A DNA stretch of 64,000 nucleotides from Planctomycetia bacterium. Lineage in GTDB: Bacteria; Planctomycetota; Planctomycetia; JALXBF01; JBGPMX01. The stretch's first letter is position 1. Each line of letters begins with the position of its first letter. Under the pieces are notes generated by a model. It saw only the letters and a list, made by a program, of their open reading frames with translations, was not told where the DNA came from and searched no databases. Position numbers and translations under genes: made by a program. The DNA lies in NCBI GenBank assembly GCA_036758585.1, contig DAIOWH010000001.1:98462-162461 (forward strand). The letters are read 5' to 3'. Of this stretch, positions 2,273 through 56,645 are shown in pieces.

Positions 2273-5200
2273 ATGGCGAAAACGAAGGCGAAGCGACACC
2301 AGAAGTCGCGGCGGCTTGTTCATGGCAACTCGTCGCCAGGCGGATCGCGCCTTGGCTTTCTGGAGCGGCTTGAGTCGCGCGAATTGCTGAGCGATTTCCA
2401 GCCCGTCCAGGTTGGTTTCTCGTGGCTCACCCCCGGTCAGCCCACCGTCGTCCAATTCAATGCGGCAGGTCAGTGTCTGGGGGTAACGGGTCCGGCGGCA
2501 GGCGACCACGATGATTGTGCGATCGGCGACGTCGGCCCTGACCGCGTGACGATTCAATTCAGTCGCAACATCGATCGGCGCACGTTCAACGCCGCCGCAG
2601 ACGTCACGGTGACCGGCGATCTCGACGCGACCGATCCGTTTCGCGTGACCAGTGGCGTGGCGCGACGCCGCGTGGTTACTATCAACACGGCCGGCGACCT
2701 AGCTACAGGCGCCGACGCCAACCTGACGCTCGGCCTTCGCGACATCAAGGCGAAGGGCAAGTCGGGCGCCTGGCTCGATCCGTGGACGATGACGGTGAAC
2801 GTCAACTCGGACCAGCCGCCGGCGCCCGGCAACACGCCGCCGCGCGTCTTGAGTGTGACGCCCGCAGCGGGCGCCCAGTTGAACGAGTCGCCGAGTTTCA
2901 TCGAGGCATTGCTGAGCGAAGACCTCGACTCGCCGGGCCAGAATGGAATTCAACTCTTCGCCGCCGGGCCTGACGGCAATCTGGGCACGACCGACGACGT
3001 ACGAATCAATCCGAGGCGAGTGGACTACAGTGCGGCGACAGATACGCTGCGCTTCGTGGTAAACGGGCAAGTTGCAGACGGACTCTACCAGGCTCGGGTG
3101 ATGGGTTCGCTGCGTGACGGGGCCGGAAGCAGACTGGACGGCAATGGCGACGGGACGGCGGGCGACGACTTCGTTTGGACGTTTCGCGTTGCATCAGATC
3201 CCGGCGGCGGGCCTACTGACACAACCGCGCCGGGCGTCGTGAGCGTAACGCCGAACGCGGGTGCGACGCTCACGCAGTCGCCGAGCGTCATTGAGGCGAC
3301 GCTGAACGAGGATCTCGATCCGGCCCACTTGCCGGACCAGAACAGCCTTCAGCTTCACGCCGCCGGGGCCGACGGCAACCTCGGCACGGCCGACGACGTG
3401 CGGATCGTTCCGACGCGGGTCGAATACAGTGCCGCGACGGACGTCGTGCGGTTTGTGGTGAACGGTCAACTCGCGAACGGCGCCTATCGTGCTCGTCTCG
3501 TCGGCGACTCGATCCGCGACGCCGCCGGCAACCGCGCGGCCGATTACGCCTGGACTTTCGGCGTGAACGTGCCCACCAATCCACCACCCCCGGGCGACAC
3601 GTCGGCGCCGACGGTGGTCTCAACGAATCCGTCCCCGGGCGCGATCATTACGGAGCCCCTGACGGCGATCGACGTGGTCTTCAATGAAGACCTTGATCCT
3701 GCCACCGTGACGCCTGCCAACTTTGTGCTGAGCGCCAGTGGCGGCGATGGTACGTTCGGCGACGGCAACGAGACCACGATTGCGCCGCAGCGCATCGAGT
3801 ACAGCCCGGCGACCGACACCGGGCGGTTTGTGATCGGCTCGCGTTTGCCCAACGACCTGTTCCAGCTCATGCTCGTCGGCACTGCGTCGATTCGCGACTT
3901 GGCCGGCAACAAGCTGGACGGCGACCGCAACGGTTCCGGCGGCGACAACTTCACGGCCACGTTCAGTGTGGCGGTGGCGCCTCCTCCCGACTCATCGCCC
4001 GGCCCGCACAAGGACGTGCTCGGCGGCGATCCACCGGATGCCATCGCCGACGTGTTCCCAGGTGCGCCGACGCCGACGCTGGACATCAGCGCGATTTCAG
4101 GGTTCGCCGATCCGAACAACCTCTACATCAACGTGCGGTTCAATACGACGCCGCCCGGCACGACGATCGAGGCGCCGTCGGCCAGCGAGCCGAACTCGGT
4201 GTTCGGGTTCATTGACATCGACACCGACCAGGACTTGATCACCCCGAGCTTTCTGACGAACTTCGACCGGACCCCTGCGCCGATTTCCAGCACGCCGGGC
4301 GTCGGCATTGAGTTCGTGGTGGACATCGGTTCCGAAGCGAGGCACCCCGGCTCGGTTGACGTGTTGTACACAGACGAGAAGGTGCCGTTGGCAGGGAACG
4401 ACGATTTCGATTCGCGAGACGATCTCTATATCTACAGGCCGCTGACCGGCGAGTTCTTGATCGGGTTGAACAGCGGTGGTCAGCTTGGCACGGTGCTGGG
4501 CCCGTTCCAGTTCGGAGGCGTGGGTGAGACTCCGATTCTGGGCAATTGGGACCCCGACGGCGCCGGACCGTTGCGAGCGAACGGCGGCGACGACCTCGGC
4601 ACTTTCGACGCGACCACCAGCACGTTCAAGCTCGACCTCAACGACGATCGCCGGCTGGGTGAGGATCGCGACGGCGATGGACTGCTCGACCCGACCGAGG
4701 ACCTGAACAACAACGGGCAGCTTGACGTGGGCGAGGATGCCAACGGCAACGGGTTGCTCGACCTCAGCGAAGACCTGAATGACAATGGCGGGTTTACCGA
4801 AGACTTGAACGGCAACGGCCTGCTCGACCCGACCGAGCAGGACCTGAACAACAACGGCAGGGCCGACAATCTGGTCGACACCGAGACGTTTGTGTTTGGC
4901 TTTGCGGCGCCCGATCCCGCCGACCAGGTCTTGTTCGGCGACTGGGACGAAGACGGCGACACGGATATCGGCGTCTATCGCGCGGCGACAGGCGAATTCC
5001 TTCTCGACCTGAACGGCAACTACGAGATTGACGCGGCCGTGACCGATCCGATTCCCGAGCTTCCCTTCCGGTTTGGTCCGATATCGACGACGAACGTAGC
5101 CCTGGTGGGAGATTGGAACGCCGATGGCCGCACGGAAGTCGGTGTGTTCGTGCGGGGCGAGGACCTGAACGGCGATGGATTCTTCAACGACGGAACGGCT

Positions 5201-49790: not shown

Positions 49791-52700
49791 CTACTGCGTC
49801 TCGACCGTCACGGCCATCACGACGGGGGCCGTGGCGTCGGGGCCCTTCACCAACTCGATCCGTTCGATCGTGTCGGTGCGCTTCGGTTGAACGGCGAGGT
49901 AGCGAATCTGCTGGCCGCGCAGGCGGAACGCGAGCTTCGACTGCGGCACATCGACGACGCGAATGTAGTCGGCGAAGTGGACGCCGTTCTTCAGTTCGTG
50001 GTCTTCGGTCGCGCCGTCGGCGTAGTGCAAGCGCACGATCATCGACACGGTCTCGTCGCGATTGAACGGGAACGCCCAGCCGCCCACGCCCGAGAGCAAG
50101 TGAATCGCTCGCGCCGGCGCGTTGCACGGCAGCGTCACCGACCTGGGCATCTTGGGGGGCAGCGCGCCCTGTGGACCGTTGAGCAGAACGGCGTTCTTCA
50201 CGCGGTCGCCCTGCGGATCGACCAGCACGAACGGCACGCCCTCGACCGTCTTTGGCGACCAGTCGCGGAAGATGAGTCGCTCGACGTCGGAGTCTTCGTT
50301 GATGAACATGCCGCGCGTGCTGACGACCGTGGCGACCTTGGCGAGGTCGAGCGGCAGATACTTGCCGCGGGCGGCGAGAAACTCCAGCAGGTTCACGAGT
50401 TCCTCGCGAGTGATCTGTTTCTCGAACCCCTCGGGCATGAGCGATTTCGGCGATTCGAGCAACTCCTCGACGTCCTCGCGCAGTACGATCTGCTTCTTGC
50501 CCTCGGGGTCGAACAGTTCGAGCGCGGTCTTTGTTTCCGAGGCCAAGAGGCCGGTGAGCACGCGGCCGTCTTTGGTGGCAACCAGGTACGCGCGGTAGTT
50601 GCCCTCGACCGAGCGGCTGGGGTCGAGGATGTTCGTTAGGAGTTCGATCTTCGGGTGTACGGCCATGCCGGTGAGGTCCGGGCCGACTTTCGACCCTTCG
50701 CCCGAATGCGTGTGGCACTTGGCACAATGTTTGGTGAACGCCGCCTTGCCCGCGGCCACGTCGCCTGTTTCCTTCGTGATCGGCTCGAACTCCTCCATCA
50801 CCTTCTGCCGGTCCGGGTTCGGCAGGCGTCCCTTGCGCGCGAGCACCGTCTTCGCCCGCTCCGCGATCGCCTTGTTGGGATGCCCGGCCAGCGTCGTCGC
50901 CTGGTCCGACGCCAGATCGGTCGAATCGACCTTGCCCGCTTCAATCGCATCGAGCAGCGCCTTCGACCACGCCGGCCGCTTCACGAGTGCCGCCAGGGCC
51001 GCCCGTCGCGTCGCGGGAGTCAGCGACGGCCAGCGCTCGAGGATCGCCGCGCCGACTTCGTCCGAGCCGCTTTCGCCGAGCGCTTCGATGATGCCGCCGG
51101 ACAGCGCGGGACTCGCCGCGGGCGTGACGAGATCGAGCAGCGATTTCATCGACTCATCGTCGCTACCGACGGCAACCAGTTGCCGCGCGGCGGCAACACG
51201 CGACTCGTCTGCGAGTTTTGTATCGCCGATCCGCGTCAGCATCGTCTTTCTGATTCCAGCCGCCGACGCCTCGAACTTGCCGCGAATTCCCATCCGACCG
51301 GCAAGCTTCGCGAGCGCGAGTTGTCCCTGAGGTGATAGCTTGCCGACCATCGCGTCTAGCGCGTCATTGGCGTCCTCGTCAAGTTTCGACCTGTGCTCCG
51401 ATGACCAACCGGCAGCGAGTCCAGCGACTGCCGCATCGGCAACGATCGGAACTTCCGAAGCGCTCAGTGAACGAATCACGACGCCGATATCCTCGTCATC
51501 AGGTTTGCGACGTGCGAAGTTTTCGGCAACGGTGCGTACGGCGTCGGTGACTCGTTTCGTTGACGCTACATCCGACTTCAAATTCAGCGCAGCCGCGGAA
51601 AGAAATCCCACGTCACTCTTGGCGCCCGCAACAATGGCGGCCAATGGGATCCACGGATCAGAAGCACTCTGTGGTTCCGAAAGGAACCTCGCGGCGTTCT
51701 CACCTGAAACCGTGGACGGTTCTGAATTCGCGCTGAACAGGAGCATTGCCAATCGCTCCTTCGGATGACCAGCCACGTAACGGTCCCGCTGCGGCGGTAA
51801 AAGTATGCCGTTGAGTCGCGGTGTCTCGGCGAGGCCCTCCTCAGTCTGATGGGCGTGAAGTGCCGAGAGTTCAATCGCTGTCGGAAGCCCATCGGCCTTT
51901 CGACCCACCTTGTCTCTCACGTAGCTCATCAGAGTCTCGTGGAGCTGCGGCGCCAGTTCTTTCCGCTTGCTTTCGACGAGCAACCGTTGCGCAGTCAGGC
52001 GCACCCACATGTTCTTGTCCGAAAAGGCGGCAAGAAGTTGCTCCGGCGTCGCGCGGTCGAGTCGAATGGGCGGCTGGGGTCGAGTCTTCGAGCCCCCAGC
52101 CTTTTCGTTAGCGTAGTGCAGGCGGCCCGCCTGCAATGTCGTCAAAGGAAACCGCAGGCGATCCGCCTGCACTACGACTTCCTTGGGAGTCGCTTTGTCG
52201 CCCGCAGCCTGGGTGCTCGAAGAATCGACCCCAGCCACCCCAACGCTGGACGATTTCTCCGCGTCGTGCACGACGCGATAAATCCGCCCGTGCGTTTGGT
52301 CGCGGAGTGGAGTTTCGTAGGCGTTGCCGCGGCCGGTCTTGAAGCCGGCGGGCGTGGGGTTGTGCTGAATGATGTAGTTGTACCAGTCGAGGATCCAGAC
52401 GGCGCCGTCCGGACCGACCTTGGCATCGACCGGGCCGAACCACGGGTCGGTCGAGGCCACGAGGTTCCAGCCGTCGCGGGCGATGAAGCCGGAACCGTTC
52501 GGCACGAGCCAGTCGATGTGCACCAGCCGCGCGGTCGGCTCGCAGACGAACACGGCGCGGTTCCAATATTCCGGCGGGAAGCTGCGGGCTGTGTACACCT
52601 CGCAGCCGGCCGCGGCCGTGAACCCGCCGTGCCAGTCCATCTGACGGAAGTCGCCGACGATCGGGTGTACCTTATTGTGGTCCTGGATTCCGGCGCTGCC

Positions 52701-54500
52701 GACGCCGTGCCAGCCGCGGACCATCTCGAAGTAGCGGTTCGGGATCGCCATGTGGACGAGATGCTGGTTGTTCGCCGTCGAGCAGAACACGTCGCCGGTC
52801 TCGCTGAAGCCGAGGCCCCAGGTGTTGTTCGAGGTGGGGGTGATGACCTCGAAGGCGGTGACGCGGGGGAGAGATTGCTGATTGCTAATTGCTGATTGCT
52901 GATTGCCAGATTTCGTCACTTGCGTCTCTTCCGTCCTTCTTGTCCCGGAAGAAACCTCGGTCGACCCACCGTTTAGTTTGAAGCGAAAGATGCACTGGCG
53001 GAACGAAATCTCTTCCTCCCTCTCCCCGTCTGCGGGGAGAGGGTTGGGGTGAGGGGTAGTCGGCACGTTGTTCGAGTTCACTAGTTTTTTTGCTTGCTCC
53101 CCAGACCCCTCACCCCGGCCCTCTCCCCGCAGACGGGGAGAGGGAGCAGTCGTGACGGCGGAGGCCGGCCGCGTCACTTTCACTTTGCCGCCGGAGTAGC
53201 CGCACACGCCCCAAATCCAGTTGTCGAGGCCGTAGCGCAGGTTCGAGGTGACGGCGTGCGTGTCGCCGCGGCCGAAGCCGGTGAGGATGATCTCGCGCAC
53301 GTCGGCCCGGTCGTCGCCGTCGGTGTCCTTGAGGAACAGGAGGTGCGGGGCGCACGCGACCACGACTCCGCCGTGCGTGTTCACGATCGCGGTCGGGATG
53401 TTCAGCTTGTCGGCGAACACGGTGAACTTGTCGGCGCGGCCGTCTTGGTTGGTGTCTTCGCAAATCTTGATCTGGTCGTTGCCGTTTTGGTGCGGGTCGT
53501 CGAGCAGCTTGTTCGGGTAGTCGACGCTCTCGATGATCCAGAGACGTCCGCGTTCGTCCCATGAACCGGCCATCGGCTTCTTGATGTCCGGTTCGGCGGC
53601 GAACAGTTCCGCGCGGAACCCTTCCGGCATGTGCATATGTTTGATGGATAGTTCGGGCGGCAGCGGCTTGGCGATCTTGTTCAGGTTCTCGCCCTGTGTG
53701 CCCCACTTCTGGCCGGGGGTGTAGTGAGGAATCGGCGCGCCGGCGTCGACGTATTCGAGTGGCGGCAGGTCGTCGGTCAGGCGGCCGGTCGCCCAGCGGA
53801 TGCCATTCTCGACGAGCTTGTGAAACTGCGGTTGCCCGAAAGTTTTTTCATCGTGGCCGAGCGCAGTGTAGAAGACGCGGCCTTTGCCTTGCTGACGTAC
53901 CCAGCAACTCGGCTCATAGCCGCCCGCCTCGTCGCGTACCATCACCGCCTGAATGTCGGCGGCGACATCGGAGTGCGTGTAATCCTCGTCTGTGACCTCG
54001 AATCCGCTGAGTCCGCGCACGGCGGGATGCTGTGCGTCGATGATCCGAGTTTGGAACTTGCGGAACCCGTGCTTCGAGAACCGGCCGCCGACAAGAGACA
54101 CATACCTTGTGCTCGATCCGAAACATGCGGACGCACAGTGCAACGGGACGAATCCCTTGCCGCCCTCGACGAACTCAACCAGCGCCGCTTCCTGCTCGGC
54201 CGACATTGTGGTGTGATTGGCGTACACGACCAGTCCGTCGTATTCGCCGAGCGTCTTTGCGTTCAAGTCGGCGACGCGATCGGTGTAAGTCAGCTTGATG
54301 CCGCGCTCGGCCAGCACAGGCTCGATCTGCTTGAACCGGGCGGCCGGCCGGTGGTGGCCGTTGTCGCCAAGGAATAGGATGCGGATCGGCGTCTGCTCGC
54401 CGGGGTCCTCGGCGCCCGACCAGGCCAACGTCGCACCGCCCAAGAGCAATAGTGTCGTGACAGTAACGGCACGGCTGAGATTACGCATGGATCTCTCCAC
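49791..54500 (-). CDS. PVC-type fusion protein: ThuA-like (class-I glutamine-amidotransferase-like) domain + putative membrane-bound dehydrogenase beta-propeller + HEAT repeats + CxxCH cytochrome c domain (1569 aa)
   Basis: Signal peptide MRNLSRAVTVTTLLLLGGATLAWS. ILFLGDNGHH...ALGHDEKTF (ThuA-like). Propeller segments (WIIESVDYPN.., WILDWYNYIIQHNPTP..). Long HEAT/ARM-like helical region. CAKCHTHSG heme-binding motif at about 50711-50725 followed by LMPEGFE. This architecture is characteristic of Planctomycetes/Verrucomicrobia. Confidence 0.85.
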   Translation of the reverse strand: MERSMRNLSRAVTVTTLLLLGGATLAWSGAEDPGEQTPIRILFLGDNGHHRPAARFKQIEPVLAERGIKLTYTDRVADLNAKTLGEYDGLVVYANHTTMSAEQEAALVEFVEGGKGFVPLHCASACFGSSTRYVSLVGGRFSKHGFRKFQTRIIDAQHPAVRGLSGFEVTDEDYTHSDVAADIQAVMVRDEAGGYEPSCWVRQQGKGRVFYTALGHDEKTFGQPQFHKLVENGIRWATGRLTDDLPPLEYVDAGAPIPHYTPGQKWGTQGENLNKIAKPLPPELSIKHMHMPEGFRAELFAAEPDIKKPMAGSWDERGRLWIIESVDYPNKLLDDPHQNGNDQIKICEDTNQDGRADKFTVFADKLNIPTAIVNTHGGVVVACAPHLLFLKDTDGDDRADVREIILTGFGRGDTHAVTSNLRYGLDNWIWGVCGYSGGKVKVTRPASAVTTAPSPRLRGEGRGEGSGEQAKKLVNSNNVPTTPHPNPLPADGEREEEISFRQCIFRFKLNGGSTEVSSGTRRTEETQVTKSGNQQSAISNQQSLPRVTAFEVITPTSNNTWGLGFSETGDVFCSTANNQHLVHMAIPNRYFEMVRGWHGVGSAGIQDHNKVHPIVGDFRQMDWHGGFTAAAGCEVYTARSFPPEYWNRAVFVCEPTARLVHIDWLVPNGSGFIARDGWNLVASTDPWFGPVDAKVGPDGAVWILDWYNYIIQHNPTPAGFKTGRGNAYETPLRDQTHGRIYRVVHDAEKSSSVGVAGVDSSSTQAAGDKATPKEVVVQADRLRFPLTTLQAGRLHYANEKAGGSKTRPQPPIRLDRATPEQLLAAFSDKNMWVRLTAQRLLVESKRKELAPQLHETLMSYVRDKVGRKADGLPTAIELSALHAHQTEEGLAETPRLNGILLPPQRDRYVAGHPKERLAMLLFSANSEPSTVSGENAARFLSEPQSASDPWIPLAAIVAGAKSDVGFLSAAALNLKSDVASTKRVTDAVRTVAENFARRKPDDEDIGVVIRSLSASEVPIVADAAVAGLAAGWSSEHRSKLDEDANDALDAMVGKLSPQGQLALAKLAGRMGIRGKFEASAAGIRKTMLTRIGDTKLADESRVAAARQLVAVGSDDESMKSLLDLVTPAASPALSGGIIEALGESGSDEVGAAILERWPSLTPATRRAALAALVKRPAWSKALLDAIEAGKVDSTDLASDQATTLAGHPNKAIAERAKTVLARKGRLPNPDRQKVMEEFEPITKETGDVAAGKAAFTKHCAKCHTHSGEGSKVGPDLTGMAVHPKIELLTNILDPSRSVEGNYRAYLVATKDGRVLTGLLASETKTALELFDPEGKKQIVLREDVEELLESPKSLMPEGFEKQITREELVNLLEFLAARGKYLPLDLAKVATVVSTRGMFINEDSDVERLIFRDWSPKTVEGVPFVLVDPQGDRVKNAVLLNGPQGALPPKMPRSVTLPCNAPARAIHLLSGVGGWAFPFNRDETVSMIVRLHYADGATEDHELKNGVHFADYIRVVDVPQSKLAFRLRGQQIRYLAVQPKRTDTIERIELVKGPDATAPVVMAVTVETQ
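52874..52908. repeat. Tandem heptamer repeat (ATTGCTG-like x5) inside the PVC dehydrogenase coding sequence
   Basis: attgctg attgcta attgctg attgctg attgcca read directly. It encodes the low-complexity NQQSAISNQQS stretch on the minus strand. Local GC is far below the gene average. Confidence 0.75.
53019..53144. mobile_element. MITE-like insertion inside a coding sequence: near-perfect 39-bp inverted repeat (CCTCTCCCCGTCTGCGGGGAGAGGGTTGGGGTGAGGGGT ... ACCCCTCACCCCGGCCCTCTCCCCGCAGACGGGGAGAGG) flanking a 47-bp AT-rich core, kept in frame
   Basis: The arms at 53019-53058 and 53106-53144 match at 37 of 39 positions as reverse complements, and each arm also contains its own short hairpin. The core (agtcggcacgttgttcgagttcactagtttttttgcttgctcc) is AT-rich relative to the gene. 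Together with the heptamer repeat it adds about 95 low-complexity residues (..RGEGRGEGSGEQ..PHPNPLPADGEREEE..) between propeller segments. Confidence 0.55.
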
Positions 54501-54597
54501 GAACAGTAAAAAACCAAGCCGCCGTCACGCACCGCCGGCACCACGGCGTCCGGGGGCGCGTGAGGGCCACGATTCCCGACTACTTGCGCGAGACAGT

Positions 54598-55725
54598 TTA
54601 AGGTGTAACAGGCGTCGGATGGAATACCCGAACCGTGCAGTCTGTGGGCGCCGCTCGCACCGCCGCCTCGTCGTCCCGCGGAAAGTAGTCGTCGACGACG
54701 TCGAGAAACTGCTGGCGCGTCGAGACCTTGGTGACCCGTGCACGGAAGGTCGTCGCGCCGCGCTTGCCGCTGGCATAGTGGCAGGCGTACTTTTTCATCA
54801 ACAGCGTACCGCTGCGTTCGTCGAATCTTTGGCAAATCAGATCGTAGTGGTGCAGCATCAGTTGCCGCTGCTGGTCGAACGTCGGATCGGGCGGCACCGG
54901 CTCACCGCGCAGGGCGGCCTCGATCTGGCGAAACAGCCAGGGCCGGCCGATCGCCGCGCGCGCGATCATCACGCCGTCGACGCCGTAGCGGCGAAACGCG
55001 GCGATCACCTTGGCGGGCGAATCGAGATCGCCGTTGCCGATGAGCGGCATCCGTTTGAGGTGCGGCTTGATCGCGGCGATGCGGTCCCAGTCGGCATGCC
55101 CGCCGAAATAGTCCTGGGCCGTGCGGCCGTGTACGGTGAGTGCGGCTGCGCCGGCCGACTCCACCACCTGCGCCACGTCGATCGCATTCATCTGGTCGCG
55201 GGTGCAACCGAGCCTGATCTTGGCGGTGACCGGCGTCGGCCGGCACGCGGCGACGACACGCTCGATGATCCGCCCCATCCGGTCGGGAAACCTCAGCAGG
55301 TACGATCCGCTGTGCGCCCGTTCGGTCAACTTCTTCACCGGGCAACCAAAGTTGATGTCGACGACGCTCACGCGATACTCATGGGCCAGGCGCTCGCCCA
55401 CCTTGGCCAGCGTGTCGGGGTCGTTGTCCCACATCTGCACGGCGATCGGCCGCGGCTCGTCTTTCACGCCCCACAATCGCTCGGGGTGTTCGCAATCGTG
55501 TTCGTCCAGCCAGACGAACGCGCGTGCGTTCACCATCTCGGTCGCCTGCAGCCCCACGCCGCCGAACTGCCGCACGATCTGCCGAAACGCATAGCTGGTG
55601 TAGCCCGCCATCGGCGCGGCGAGCACCGGCGGGTCGATGCGCAGCGGGCCGATGAACAACGTCGCCAAGGCCAGCGGCGCGATCGGCGAGTTAGGTGGCG
55701 GCGGCGTGGTCAACTGGTCGTGCAT
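54598..55725 (-). CDS. tRNA-dihydrouridine synthase (Dus family)
   Basis: LAAPMAGYTSYAFRQI, VDINFGCPVKK, LTVHGRT, LIGNGDL motifs of the Dus TIM barrel. The probable start is ATG at 55725 (MHDQLTTPPPP...), giving 376 aa. The 477-aa track ORF is an upstream in-frame extension. Confidence 0.8.
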   Translation of the reverse strand: MHDQLTTPPPPNSPIAPLALATLFIGPLRIDPPVLAAPMAGYTSYAFRQIVRQFGGVGLQATEMVNARAFVWLDEHDCEHPERLWGVKDEPRPIAVQMWDNDPDTLAKVGERLAHEYRVSVVDINFGCPVKKLTERAHSGSYLLRFPDRMGRIIERVVAACRPTPVTAKIRLGCTRDQMNAIDVAQVVESAGAAALTVHGRTAQDYFGGHADWDRIAAIKPHLKRMPLIGNGDLDSPAKVIAAFRRYGVDGVMIARAAIGRPWLFRQIEAALRGEPVPPDPTFDQQRQLMLHHYDLICQRFDERSGTLLMKKYACHYASGKRGATTFRARVTKVSTRQQFLDVVDDYFPRDDEAAVRAAPTDCTVRVFHPTPVTP

Positions 55726-55824
55726 GCACGCATCTTGCGAGAAGTCGGCGCGTGCGCCAAGTGCGGGAACTTGTTTTGGCGGCCACTTGCGGCAACAATT
55801 CGTGCAACTCTTAGAGAGGAACCA

Positions 55825-56088
55825 ATGGCCAGTGAACTGCTCTGGAAACGTGCGGTCCGCCGGGCGTTCGACTCGTTGCGGGGAGAACGGTTCGACGGCG
55901 ACTTCCGGCTTGCCTGCGAACTTTCGGCGATGTCCATTGACATGCTGCGTCGGTATCTGGCGGGATCGGATAATCCATCCGACGAGGAACTGGACCGACG
56001 GGTCTCCCGATTTCGCATTGAGATGGAGCAAGTCGAGCGACGCATGGCCACGTCATGGCGAACGGTGCGAGTCACGGTGAAGGAATGA
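55825..56088 (+). CDS. Small hypothetical protein (87 aa), first gene of a translationally coupled pair
   Basis: ATG at 55825 is preceded by AGAGAGGA (SD-like) 6 nt upstream. Its stop overlaps the next gene's start in an ATGA arrangement. No recognisable family. Confidence 0.4.
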   Translation: MASELLWKRAVRRAFDSLRGERFDGDFRLACELSAMSIDMLRRYLAGSDNPSDEELDRRVSRFRIEMEQVERRMATSWRTVRVTVKE

Positions 56089-56645
56089 CCAGCGCAACTG
56101 TTCGGGCAACCCTGGAAGCCGCCATTGGCTTGCTGGAGCGACTGAACCTTCCTTACGCGCTGATGGGAGCGATGTCGCTCGGGTTCTATGGCCGATTGCG
56201 AGCGACCGACGACGTCGACCTATTGGTTGCAGGGGACAGCCAGACCCTCGATCGCCTTCGTGATGAAGCGCAACGTGAAGGTTTTTCGATCGACGAACAG
56301 TGGTCGCTGTACAATCCGGGGTTGCGCGACACGCACGTCCGATTGGTCCGCTCGGGCGTCCCTGTCGATATGATGCTGCCGCGCGACGATCAGGACCGGT
56401 CCGCCGCCGACCGCCGTCGTCAGCACGTGATAGAGACCGGTACCATCTGGGTCGTCGCGCCCGAGGACTTGATCCTTCAGAAACTCAAGGCAGGTCGCCC
56501 CCGCGATTTCGACGACGCAATCCCGATCTTCGCGCGGAACCGAGCGCAGCTCGACCACGACTATCTCAATGAATGGGCGCGGCGGCTTGGTGTGCGCGAG
56601 GAATTGGATTACCTCTGGAGTCAAAGCGGCCGAGCCGAACCATGA
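56085..56645 (+). CDS. Minimal nucleotidyltransferase-fold (Pol-beta superfamily) protein, about 186 aa
   Basis: GAMSLGFYGRLRATDDVDLLV matches the hG[GS]x9-13Dh[DE] NTase signature. A second acidic cluster (VVAPEDLILQKLKAGRPRDFDD) follows. The start is taken as the ATG in the ATGA overlap at 56085; the track's 56055 ATG is an alternative. Confidence 0.5.
   Translation: MTSATVRATLEAAIGLLERLNLPYALMGAMSLGFYGRLRATDDVDLLVAGDSQTLDRLRDEAQREGFSIDEQWSLYNPGLRDTHVRLVRSGVPVDMMLPRDDQDRSAADRRRQHVIETGTIWVVAPEDLILQKLKAGRPRDFDDAIPIFARNRAQLDHDYLNEWARRLGVREELDYLWSQSGRAEP

Follow-up and report, generated by a model that had tools for sequence, protein, structure and literature searches.

What does a tightly coupled pair of small genes do in the chromosome of an uncultured planctomycete? 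The pair lies in a 64,000-nucleotide stretch of DNA, called the window here (contig DAIOWH010000001.1 of the Planctomycetia bacterium assembly GCA_036758585.1, positions 98,462 to 162,461). It consists of an open reading frame (ORF) for an 87-amino-acid protein followed by one for a 186-amino-acid protein that carries the signature of a Pol-beta nucleotidyltransferase (NTase). An earlier note on this DNA had suggested a toxin-antitoxin (TA)-like pair. That suggestion has fared well, as the two genes are conserved together, co-evolve and are homologous to MenA1-MenT1, whose small helical antitoxin is encoded ahead of an NTase toxin thought to block tRNAs. We read the pair as a chromosomal MenAT1-type TA module with the NTase as toxin, and put the probability of this reading at roughly 75%.

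All features of the pair are on the forward strand. The gene for the 87-amino-acid protein, the predicted antitoxin (55825..56088), runs from an ATG at 55825 to a TGA at 56086-56088, and a Shine-Dalgarno-like AGAGAGGA (55813..55820) lies 4 nt 5' of its start codon. Its stop overlaps the ATG (56085) of the NTase gene, the predicted toxin (56085..56645), in the four letters ATGA (56085..56088), an arrangement that suggests translational coupling of antitoxin and toxin. The earlier note had described the pair in these terms, which we confirm from the sequence, and the pair recurs well beyond the window.

The NTase is part of a conserved family of ~185-residue proteins that borders the Pfam families DUF6036 and DUF2204. 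It scores 22.6 bits against DUF6036 (PF19502; cut-off 23.6), 20.7 bits against DUF2204 (cut-off 20.3, a marginal pass) and 18.0 bits against AbiEii (PF08843; cut-off 22.5), the last through its N-terminal region only (residues 23-63). A large protein database yielded 92 homologues of ~185 amino acids, nearly all metagenomic, and many of those at 30-57% identity carry a precomputed PF19502 assignment; a literature search returned nothing on DUF6036 and nothing relevant on DUF2204. Ten residues are invariant in an alignment of 52 homologues: R39, T41, D43, D45, D95, D128, K133, R138, D141 and D144. The Pol-beta signature reported in the earlier note is indeed there, as GAMSLGFYGRLRATDDVDLLV (residues 28-48, reading G28-A-M-S...R39-A-T-D-D43-V-D45-LLV), and its core, R39-A-T41-D-D43-V-D45 (56199..56219), supplies R39, T41, D43 and D45. 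The second acidic cluster of that note also stands. D95 (56367..56369), in VDMML on the predicted strand E92-97, is one of the ten, and we infer that it provides the Pol-beta active site with its third carboxylate; the invariance of D101, within the DDQD cluster (residues 100-103), is restricted to the closer clade. In the C-terminal lobe, the motif K133-LKAGRPRDFD-D144 (56481..56516) holds K133, R138, D141 and D144.

Among proteins of solved structure, the closest relative of this family is MenT1 of M. tuberculosis. Compared with the PDB, a profile of the 52 NTase sequences gave a strong match to one solved protein, MenT1 (Rv0078A; 8AN4/8AN5/8RR5; E 7.7e-16), and hhalign aligned the NTase family with MenT1 at 97.6% probability. 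An AF2 model of the NTase (pLDDT 95.2, pTM 0.89) has the bi-lobed layout of MenT1, with a beta-sheet lobe whose strands lie within residues 24-123 and a C-terminal four-helix bundle (helices 126-136, 139-151, 158-168 and 171-181). When this model was searched against the PDB with Foldseek, the top five matches were all MenT1 chains (E 3.5e-10 to 5e-8, TM 0.62-0.74), led by 8an5 and 8an4 (TM 0.70-0.74). The active sites correspond as well: in a hidden Markov model (HMM) alignment to 8an4, T39, D41, D43, K137 and D152 of MenT1 fall on T41, D43, D45, K133 and D144, all five invariant here, and the C-lobe motif aligns with 'MKLLA....RRPQDRSD', so that K133 matches K137 and D144 matches D152. MenT1 loses its toxicity when D41, K137 (K137A) or D152 (D152A) is mutated, and metal binding involves D41 and is supported by D43; T39 is likewise a conserved active-site residue, yet a T39A variant remains toxic (PMC10435456), and it is this residue, the phospho-acceptor, that is auto-phosphorylated (PMC11375011). 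A MenT1 fragment scores 36.4 bits against AbiEii/DUF1814. As MenT1 thus lies in that family and the NTase falls below its threshold, the latter is a sister-family relative rather than a member by the curated threshold.

Could the NTase instead be a harmless enzyme? Under this explanation it would be a non-toxic nucleotidyltransferase with a small-molecule substrate or a housekeeping function, such as an antibiotic-modifying one of the ANT(2'')/Lnu kind, and the small protein an accessory or regulatory subunit. ANT(2'')-Ia, LnuA and TM1012 do share a similar compact fold and are found by Foldseek (E 5e-5 to 5e-4, TM 0.5-0.6), and there is a weak Pfam match to Aminoglyc_resit (E 0.11). However, these proteins, along with CCA-adding enzymes, score below MenT1 by fold, and the profile match is far better to MenT1 than to LnuA (E 7.7e-16 versus 4.9e-4). 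They are also stand-alone enzymes that lack an obligate small upstream partner, whereas the partner here is homologous to an antitoxin family. The K...RPRD..D motif of the C-lobe agrees with the catalytic K137 and D152 of MenT1, and the patchy occurrence, unrelated contexts and repeated NTase decay described below are not expected of such an enzyme. We therefore consider this explanation highly improbable. The earlier note had allowed for a housekeeping NTase family next to a small ORF that is not conserved; instead, the nearest relatives of the NTase are TA toxins, and the small ORF is conserved.

A CD-NTase identity was also tried and rejected: the NTase had no CD-NTase profile match and no significant CBASS match in PADLOC, and CdnC folds matched its model at a TM of 0.29.

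The 87-amino-acid partner, the predicted antitoxin, belongs distantly to the MenA1/Rv0078B (PF18993) superfamily, in which its own clade is a weak member. Its AF2 model (pLDDT 83.5) has three helices (residues 2-18, 21-46 and 53-86), the first of which contains W7 (codon 55843-55845). Orthologues were found at 82, 71, 59, 54 and 45% identity. A word-based search with the small ORF recovered three close relatives only. With the partner profile, an exhaustive search across 1.84 billion representative proteins returned 147 clusters, 137 of which were then scanned against Pfam. In most partners the N-terminal helix reads 'P.WL[RK][RK]L'; W7 and L33 (window numbering) are invariant, and a central '...EEG.RQCAELS...' helix is present as well. 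The window's own protein sits in a divergent small planctomycete clade (LLWKRAVRR...CELS).

The connection to MenA1 emerges from profile searches made in both directions. Among the 137 scanned clusters, 23 match PF18993, the 'Rv0078B-related antitoxin' or MenA1 family, at E<=0.01. Two proteins, P0338 and P0342, are retrieved by the partner profile at library-wide E values of 3.9e-4 and 8.6e-4 and, tested singly, score 61.4 and 35.4 bits against PF18993, both above its cut-off of 27.1. In the reverse direction, main-clade partners match PF18993 at E 7e-6 to 1e-3, with 19-26 bits that fall just below the cut-off. With hhalign, the main clade aligns with the PF18993-containing set at 98.5% (E 1.5e-15), a comparison that is not fully independent because the set was retrieved by the partner profile. 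The clade of the window aligns with the main clade at 80% (E 1.3e-5) and with the PF18993-containing set at 73% (E 3.1e-5). MenA1 comprises one long helix and a short C-terminal helix (PMC10435456). The PF18993-like region begins at about residue 22 of the partner, so the N-terminal Trp helix has been added to what MenA1 possesses.

The two genes recur together. We gathered the contigs of NTase homologues and 36 further loci from species-representative genomes, the latter found with a profile of 19 closer NTase sequences, for 43 distinct loci in all. Every NTase homologue on the fetched contigs has a same-strand ORF of 71-109 amino acids that abuts or overlaps its start, and in 36 of the 43 loci a partner HMM match stands immediately upstream of the NTase, in the same orientation. 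No such match accompanies the most distant NTases and a few low-GC copies from deltaproteobacteria. In most of the homologous loci the two genes overlap by 1-25 nt or abut. The hosts belong to at least seven phyla, with metagenome-assembled genomes of Planctomycetota, Methylomirabilota/Rokubacteria, Binatia, Nitrospirota, Desulfobacterota, Gemmatimonadota and Pseudomonadota. The closest genome match to the NTase is in a Planctomycetaceae genome (L012), and the nearest relative pair shows 90% identity for the NTase and 82% for the partner. Divergence of the two proteins is strongly correlated (Mantel r = 0.85, a value reached in 0 of 2000 permutations), with the partner evolving faster (mean identity 27%, against 45% for the NTase). 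This co-evolution lends indirect support to a physical interaction. The flanks, by comparison, differ in every context examined.

Among NTases that have a coupled partner, the most divergent (37% identity) has an ATGA overlap with an upstream gene for a 71-amino-acid protein (L007:2789-3004, also L008; …MTPGERLAIAFKLTDEA…). By eye this protein resembles the 'MTPEERL' motif of PF18993; it matches neither PF18993 nor the partner HMM.

Five loci bear on which of the two proteins is the toxin. In each, the NTase gene is disrupted by an independent lesion and the partner is full length; the lesions comprise one ~120-nt palindromic insertion, two frameshifts and two deletions. A TA module is expected to decay in this way, losing its toxin while the antitoxin is kept.

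Several degenerate or rearranged loci are worth describing individually. The ~120-nt insertion (L036:3008-3128) has GC-rich inverted repeats (AACCCCGCCTCTTGAGGCGGG ... GCGGGGTTAAATCCCCGCCCGCG) that make it MITE/REP-like, and it sits right after the DVDFLV (DxD) motif, downstream of an intact antitoxin gene. P0306 (109 amino acids) and P0341 (147 amino acids) join the N-terminus of the antitoxin to the C-terminal helices of the NTase (…PEDLILLKL…GHPTDFEDA…) and look like internal-deletion fusions that have lost the catalytic lobe. Another locus has a partner+NTase fragment upstream (L040:1076-1329) and a second, tandem NTase downstream (3674-4189) of a frameshifted copy. Finally, one locus (L014:1838-2122) has a second full-length partner gene ~1 kb upstream of a pair whose own partner is open only in its C-terminal part.

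The direction of decay also bears on a model raised in the earlier note, an MNT/HEPN-type system. There the NTase is an antitoxin that AMPylates or otherwise neutralizes its partner and the small protein is the toxin, as in type VII MNT-HEPN modules, whose toxin is a HEPN RNase. What the pair shares with such modules is a general resemblance, namely a two-gene arrangement of a minimal Pol-beta NTase and a small partner. But neither protein matches an MNT (PF01909/Polbeta) or HEPN profile, the 87-amino-acid sequence has no Rx4-6H motif, as the earlier note had itself observed, the partner is homologous to an antitoxin family and the NTase to a toxin, and in degenerate loci the NTase decays rather than the small ORF. 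The polarity of that model is accordingly wrong, since here we predict that the NTase is the toxin and that the small protein encoded upstream is the antitoxin, and we think that the model almost certainly does not apply. The other families named in the earlier note fared no better: KNTase and CD-NTase profiles, like those of HEPN and MNT, found no match in the pair, and AbiEii stayed below threshold.

Set beside known systems, the pair is most like MenA1-MenT1 (Rv0078B-Rv0078A). In both, the gene for a small helical antitoxin is directly upstream of that for an NTase toxin of ~190 amino acids; MenT1 is the best match to the NTase by profile and by fold, with the Thr phospho-acceptor, DxD, Lys and Asp conserved; profile matches in both directions tie the antitoxin family to PF18993; and a DNA-binding domain is recognisable neither in the 87-amino-acid protein (by Pfam scan) nor in MenA1 (PMC10435456). 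Because both components are homologous to those of MenAT1 and stand in the same order, the pair is a distant relative of a known kind of system rather than a new kind. The differences are nonetheless considerable. MenT1 falls in AbiEii/DUF1814, whereas the NTase here is at the border of DUF6036 and DUF2204. The antitoxin has 87 amino acids, compared with 68 in MenA1; it has an additional, conserved helix at the N-terminus that bears an invariant Trp ('P.WLRRL' in most relatives), and its C-terminal helix is longer. No TetR-type regulator such as Rv0078 adjoins the pair, and the hosts are uncultured Planctomycetota, Methylomirabilota, Binatia, Nitrospirota and Desulfobacterota rather than actinobacteria.

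The COG5340-DUF1814 systems of type IV/VII, AbiEi-AbiEii, MenA3-MenT3 and MenA4-MenT4, are more remote. Their toxins also belong to the Pol-beta NTase superfamily, with a Ser/Thr before the DxD and a catalytic Lys (PMC11375011), and the NTase gives its weak match to the N-terminal part of AbiEii. However, those toxins have ~240-300 amino acids, and their antitoxins are winged-helix-turn-helix COG5340 proteins of ~200 amino acids that are unrelated to the 87-amino-acid helical partner.

The relationship to AbiE raises the question of whether the same module might serve in anti-phage abortive infection, as AbiEi/AbiEii does, instead of acting as a stress or 'addiction' TA system. The contexts of homologous pairs offer some encouragement. 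Besides a PPC-domain protein, a DUF7133/cytochrome c protein and an RND efflux operon, they include a PhdYefM cluster, a VapBC/WYL island and, in a CRISPR-Cas locus, the interval from cas6b to cas1, so that one pair lies within an immune locus and others in TA/WYL islands; the AbiEii/DUF1814-type active-site motifs and the weak AbiEii match of the NTase point the same way. The pair in the window, by contrast, is found amid metabolic and housekeeping genes and not in a defence island, and its PADLOC match is non-significant (E 0.036). A phage search found no member of the family, and sequenced plasmids have next to none, with two weak cyanobacterial matches only. Neither PMC10435456 nor PMC11375011 reports a role of MenAT1 in phage defence. 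On balance we consider a dedicated anti-phage role unlikely.

Two of these contexts deserve a closer description. The pair in the CRISPR-Cas locus (45% NTase identity; L009:2691-3555, also L010 and L011) lies between cas6b and cas1 and is flanked by a Cas3-like helicase and cas4. Accessory genes of the TA or defence-associated kind are typically placed in this way. A second contig (L006:1-8576) is a TA-rich island with VapB/PIN, DUF2283, a WYL regulator and a partner/NTase pair; on the opposite strand it encodes a second, longer NTase paralogue (gene 1864-2664, 266 amino acids; NTase HMM match at 2257-2649).

Several results weigh against the assignment to MenAT1. On the side of the toxin, identity to MenT1 is only ~20%, the NTase searched against the PDB as a single sequence retrieved no match, and its scores are under the Pfam cut-offs for both AbiEii and DUF6036. 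MenT1 contacts MenA1 through F28 and F38, which are replaced here by M30 and A40, and the binding mode may thus differ. On the side of the antitoxin, the small ORF has no Pfam match, PF18993 included, and no NCBIfam or PADLOC match, and the 87-amino-acid protein joins its family through moderate profile-profile scores (73-80%) and positional orthology only. Three partner alignments, used as profiles against the sequences of the PDB, failed to recover the MenA1 chain, and Foldseek, uninformative with this small helical model, gave no meaningful structural match, MenA1 included; for this reason the link to MenA1 rests on PF18993 and profile-profile comparison and not on structure. NCBIfam matched neither protein, and PADLOC yielded nothing significant, the best match of the NTase being PDC-M21B (E 0.036). 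The disrupted NTase copies come from metagenome-assembled genomes, and some could be assembly errors. Finally, the roles of toxin and antitoxin are predictions throughout the DUF6036-type clade.

How might the module work? By homology, the 186-amino-acid minimal Pol-beta-fold NTase would be a toxin that transfers nucleoside monophosphates onto the 3' ends of RNAs. The 87-amino-acid helical protein would neutralize it post-translationally by covering its active-site face, possibly also inducing auto-phosphorylation of the conserved Thr41, and the ATGA coupling would keep synthesis of the antitoxin ahead of that of the toxin. In MenAT1, one MenA1 binds asymmetrically over two MenT1 protomers and blocks their active-site faces (PMC10435456, PMC11375011), and MenA1 induces auto-phosphorylation of MenT1 at T39 (PMC11375011), a mode that the invariance of T41 fits. 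For the pair in the window, we infer toxicity, a tRNA target, nucleotide preference, stoichiometry and phosphorylation only from these precedents. Details of binding may differ from MenAT1, given the replacement of F28/F38 by M30/A40 and the extra Trp helix. A more speculative idea, which we hold only tentatively and think is probably not correct, is that the DUF6036-type clade is a mechanistically distinct branch of NTase toxins. Neutralization, and perhaps the RNA target or nucleotide preference, would then differ from those of MenAT1, and the recurrence in CRISPR-Cas and TA islands could reflect a role in defence in environmental phyla. This idea stems from the gain of a conserved N-terminal Trp helix by the antitoxin and the replacement of the MenA1-contact residues of the toxin.

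Assignment to the MenAT1 type offers a testable function for a pair of 'hypothetical proteins' and for part of the uncharacterised DUF6036 family. It also modestly widens the MenAT1 family, to which a 2023 study assigned 21 menA1 homologues (PMC10435456), compared with the ~147 sequence clusters found here. Loci sampled from Planctomycetota, Methylomirabilota, Binatia, Nitrospirota, Desulfobacterota and Gemmatimonadota extend its reach. Additionally, the invariant Thr fits the notion that antitoxin-induced auto-phosphorylation is a general mode of NTase regulation, for which this family provides divergent examples.

The start of the antitoxin gene calls for care in annotation. The small ORF is the 3' tail of a 597-amino-acid open frame (54295-56088, forward strand) that runs antisense through the entire gene for the tRNA-dihydrouridine synthase Dus. 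This long frame is a high-GC artefact and could mislead gene callers that rely on ORF length as to where the antitoxin begins. The 87-amino-acid start is backed by the Shine-Dalgarno site, the N-termini of orthologues (MATELLWKR, MEKEFLWKR and MPRELLWKR) and public gene calls. For the NTase, another in-frame ATG at 56055 would give 196 amino acids; the N-termini of homologues and public gene calls favour 56085.

The presumed promoter of the pair lies in the divergent intergenic region of ~100 bp between the Dus start and the small ORF (55726..55824). A scan of this region for the sigma-70 consensus gave no match, and a search for operators 5' of the pair found weak imperfect inverted repeats only, such as I1 (55753-55763/55784-55794; 82% complementary), and no operator-like palindrome; an Rfam scan at the pair found no RNA family. 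The absence of promoter, operator and RNA matches seems compatible with the reported lack of transcriptional autoregulation in MenAT1.

The base composition of the pair is unremarkable. Its divergent neighbour is the gene for Dus (54598-55725, reverse strand, 375 amino acids), beyond which lies a reverse-strand ORF of 1569 amino acids with ThuA, DUF7133 and cytochrome c domains (49791-54500); 3' of the pair is a convergent reverse-strand gene for a GFO_IDH_MocA oxidoreductase of 371 amino acids, all as given by public gene calls. Taken with the Planctomycetaceae affiliation of the genome (L012) that holds the nearest GTDB relative of the NTase, the 1569-amino-acid ORF hints that the window derives from Planctomycetota. 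The earlier note had correctly placed the pair between Dus and the oxidoreductase; the lower GC content that it attributed to the latter amounts to a slight difference (0.56-0.61 versus 0.60-0.67). Of 80 metagenomic loci that encode a Dus orthologue (57-83% identity), none contains the pair and none retains the oxidoreductase or ThuA neighbours. As these genes are missing too, the comparison tells us no more than that the pair and Dus are unlinked, and it does not amount to a clean insertion polymorphism. Within its source genome the pair is an ordinary accessory TA module, unlinked to its neighbours. In another locus (L003), a homologue of the pair adjoins a DUF7133/cytochrome c gene, much as the ThuA/DUF7133/cytochrome c ORF lies near the pair in the window, an adjacency that we assume to be coincidence.

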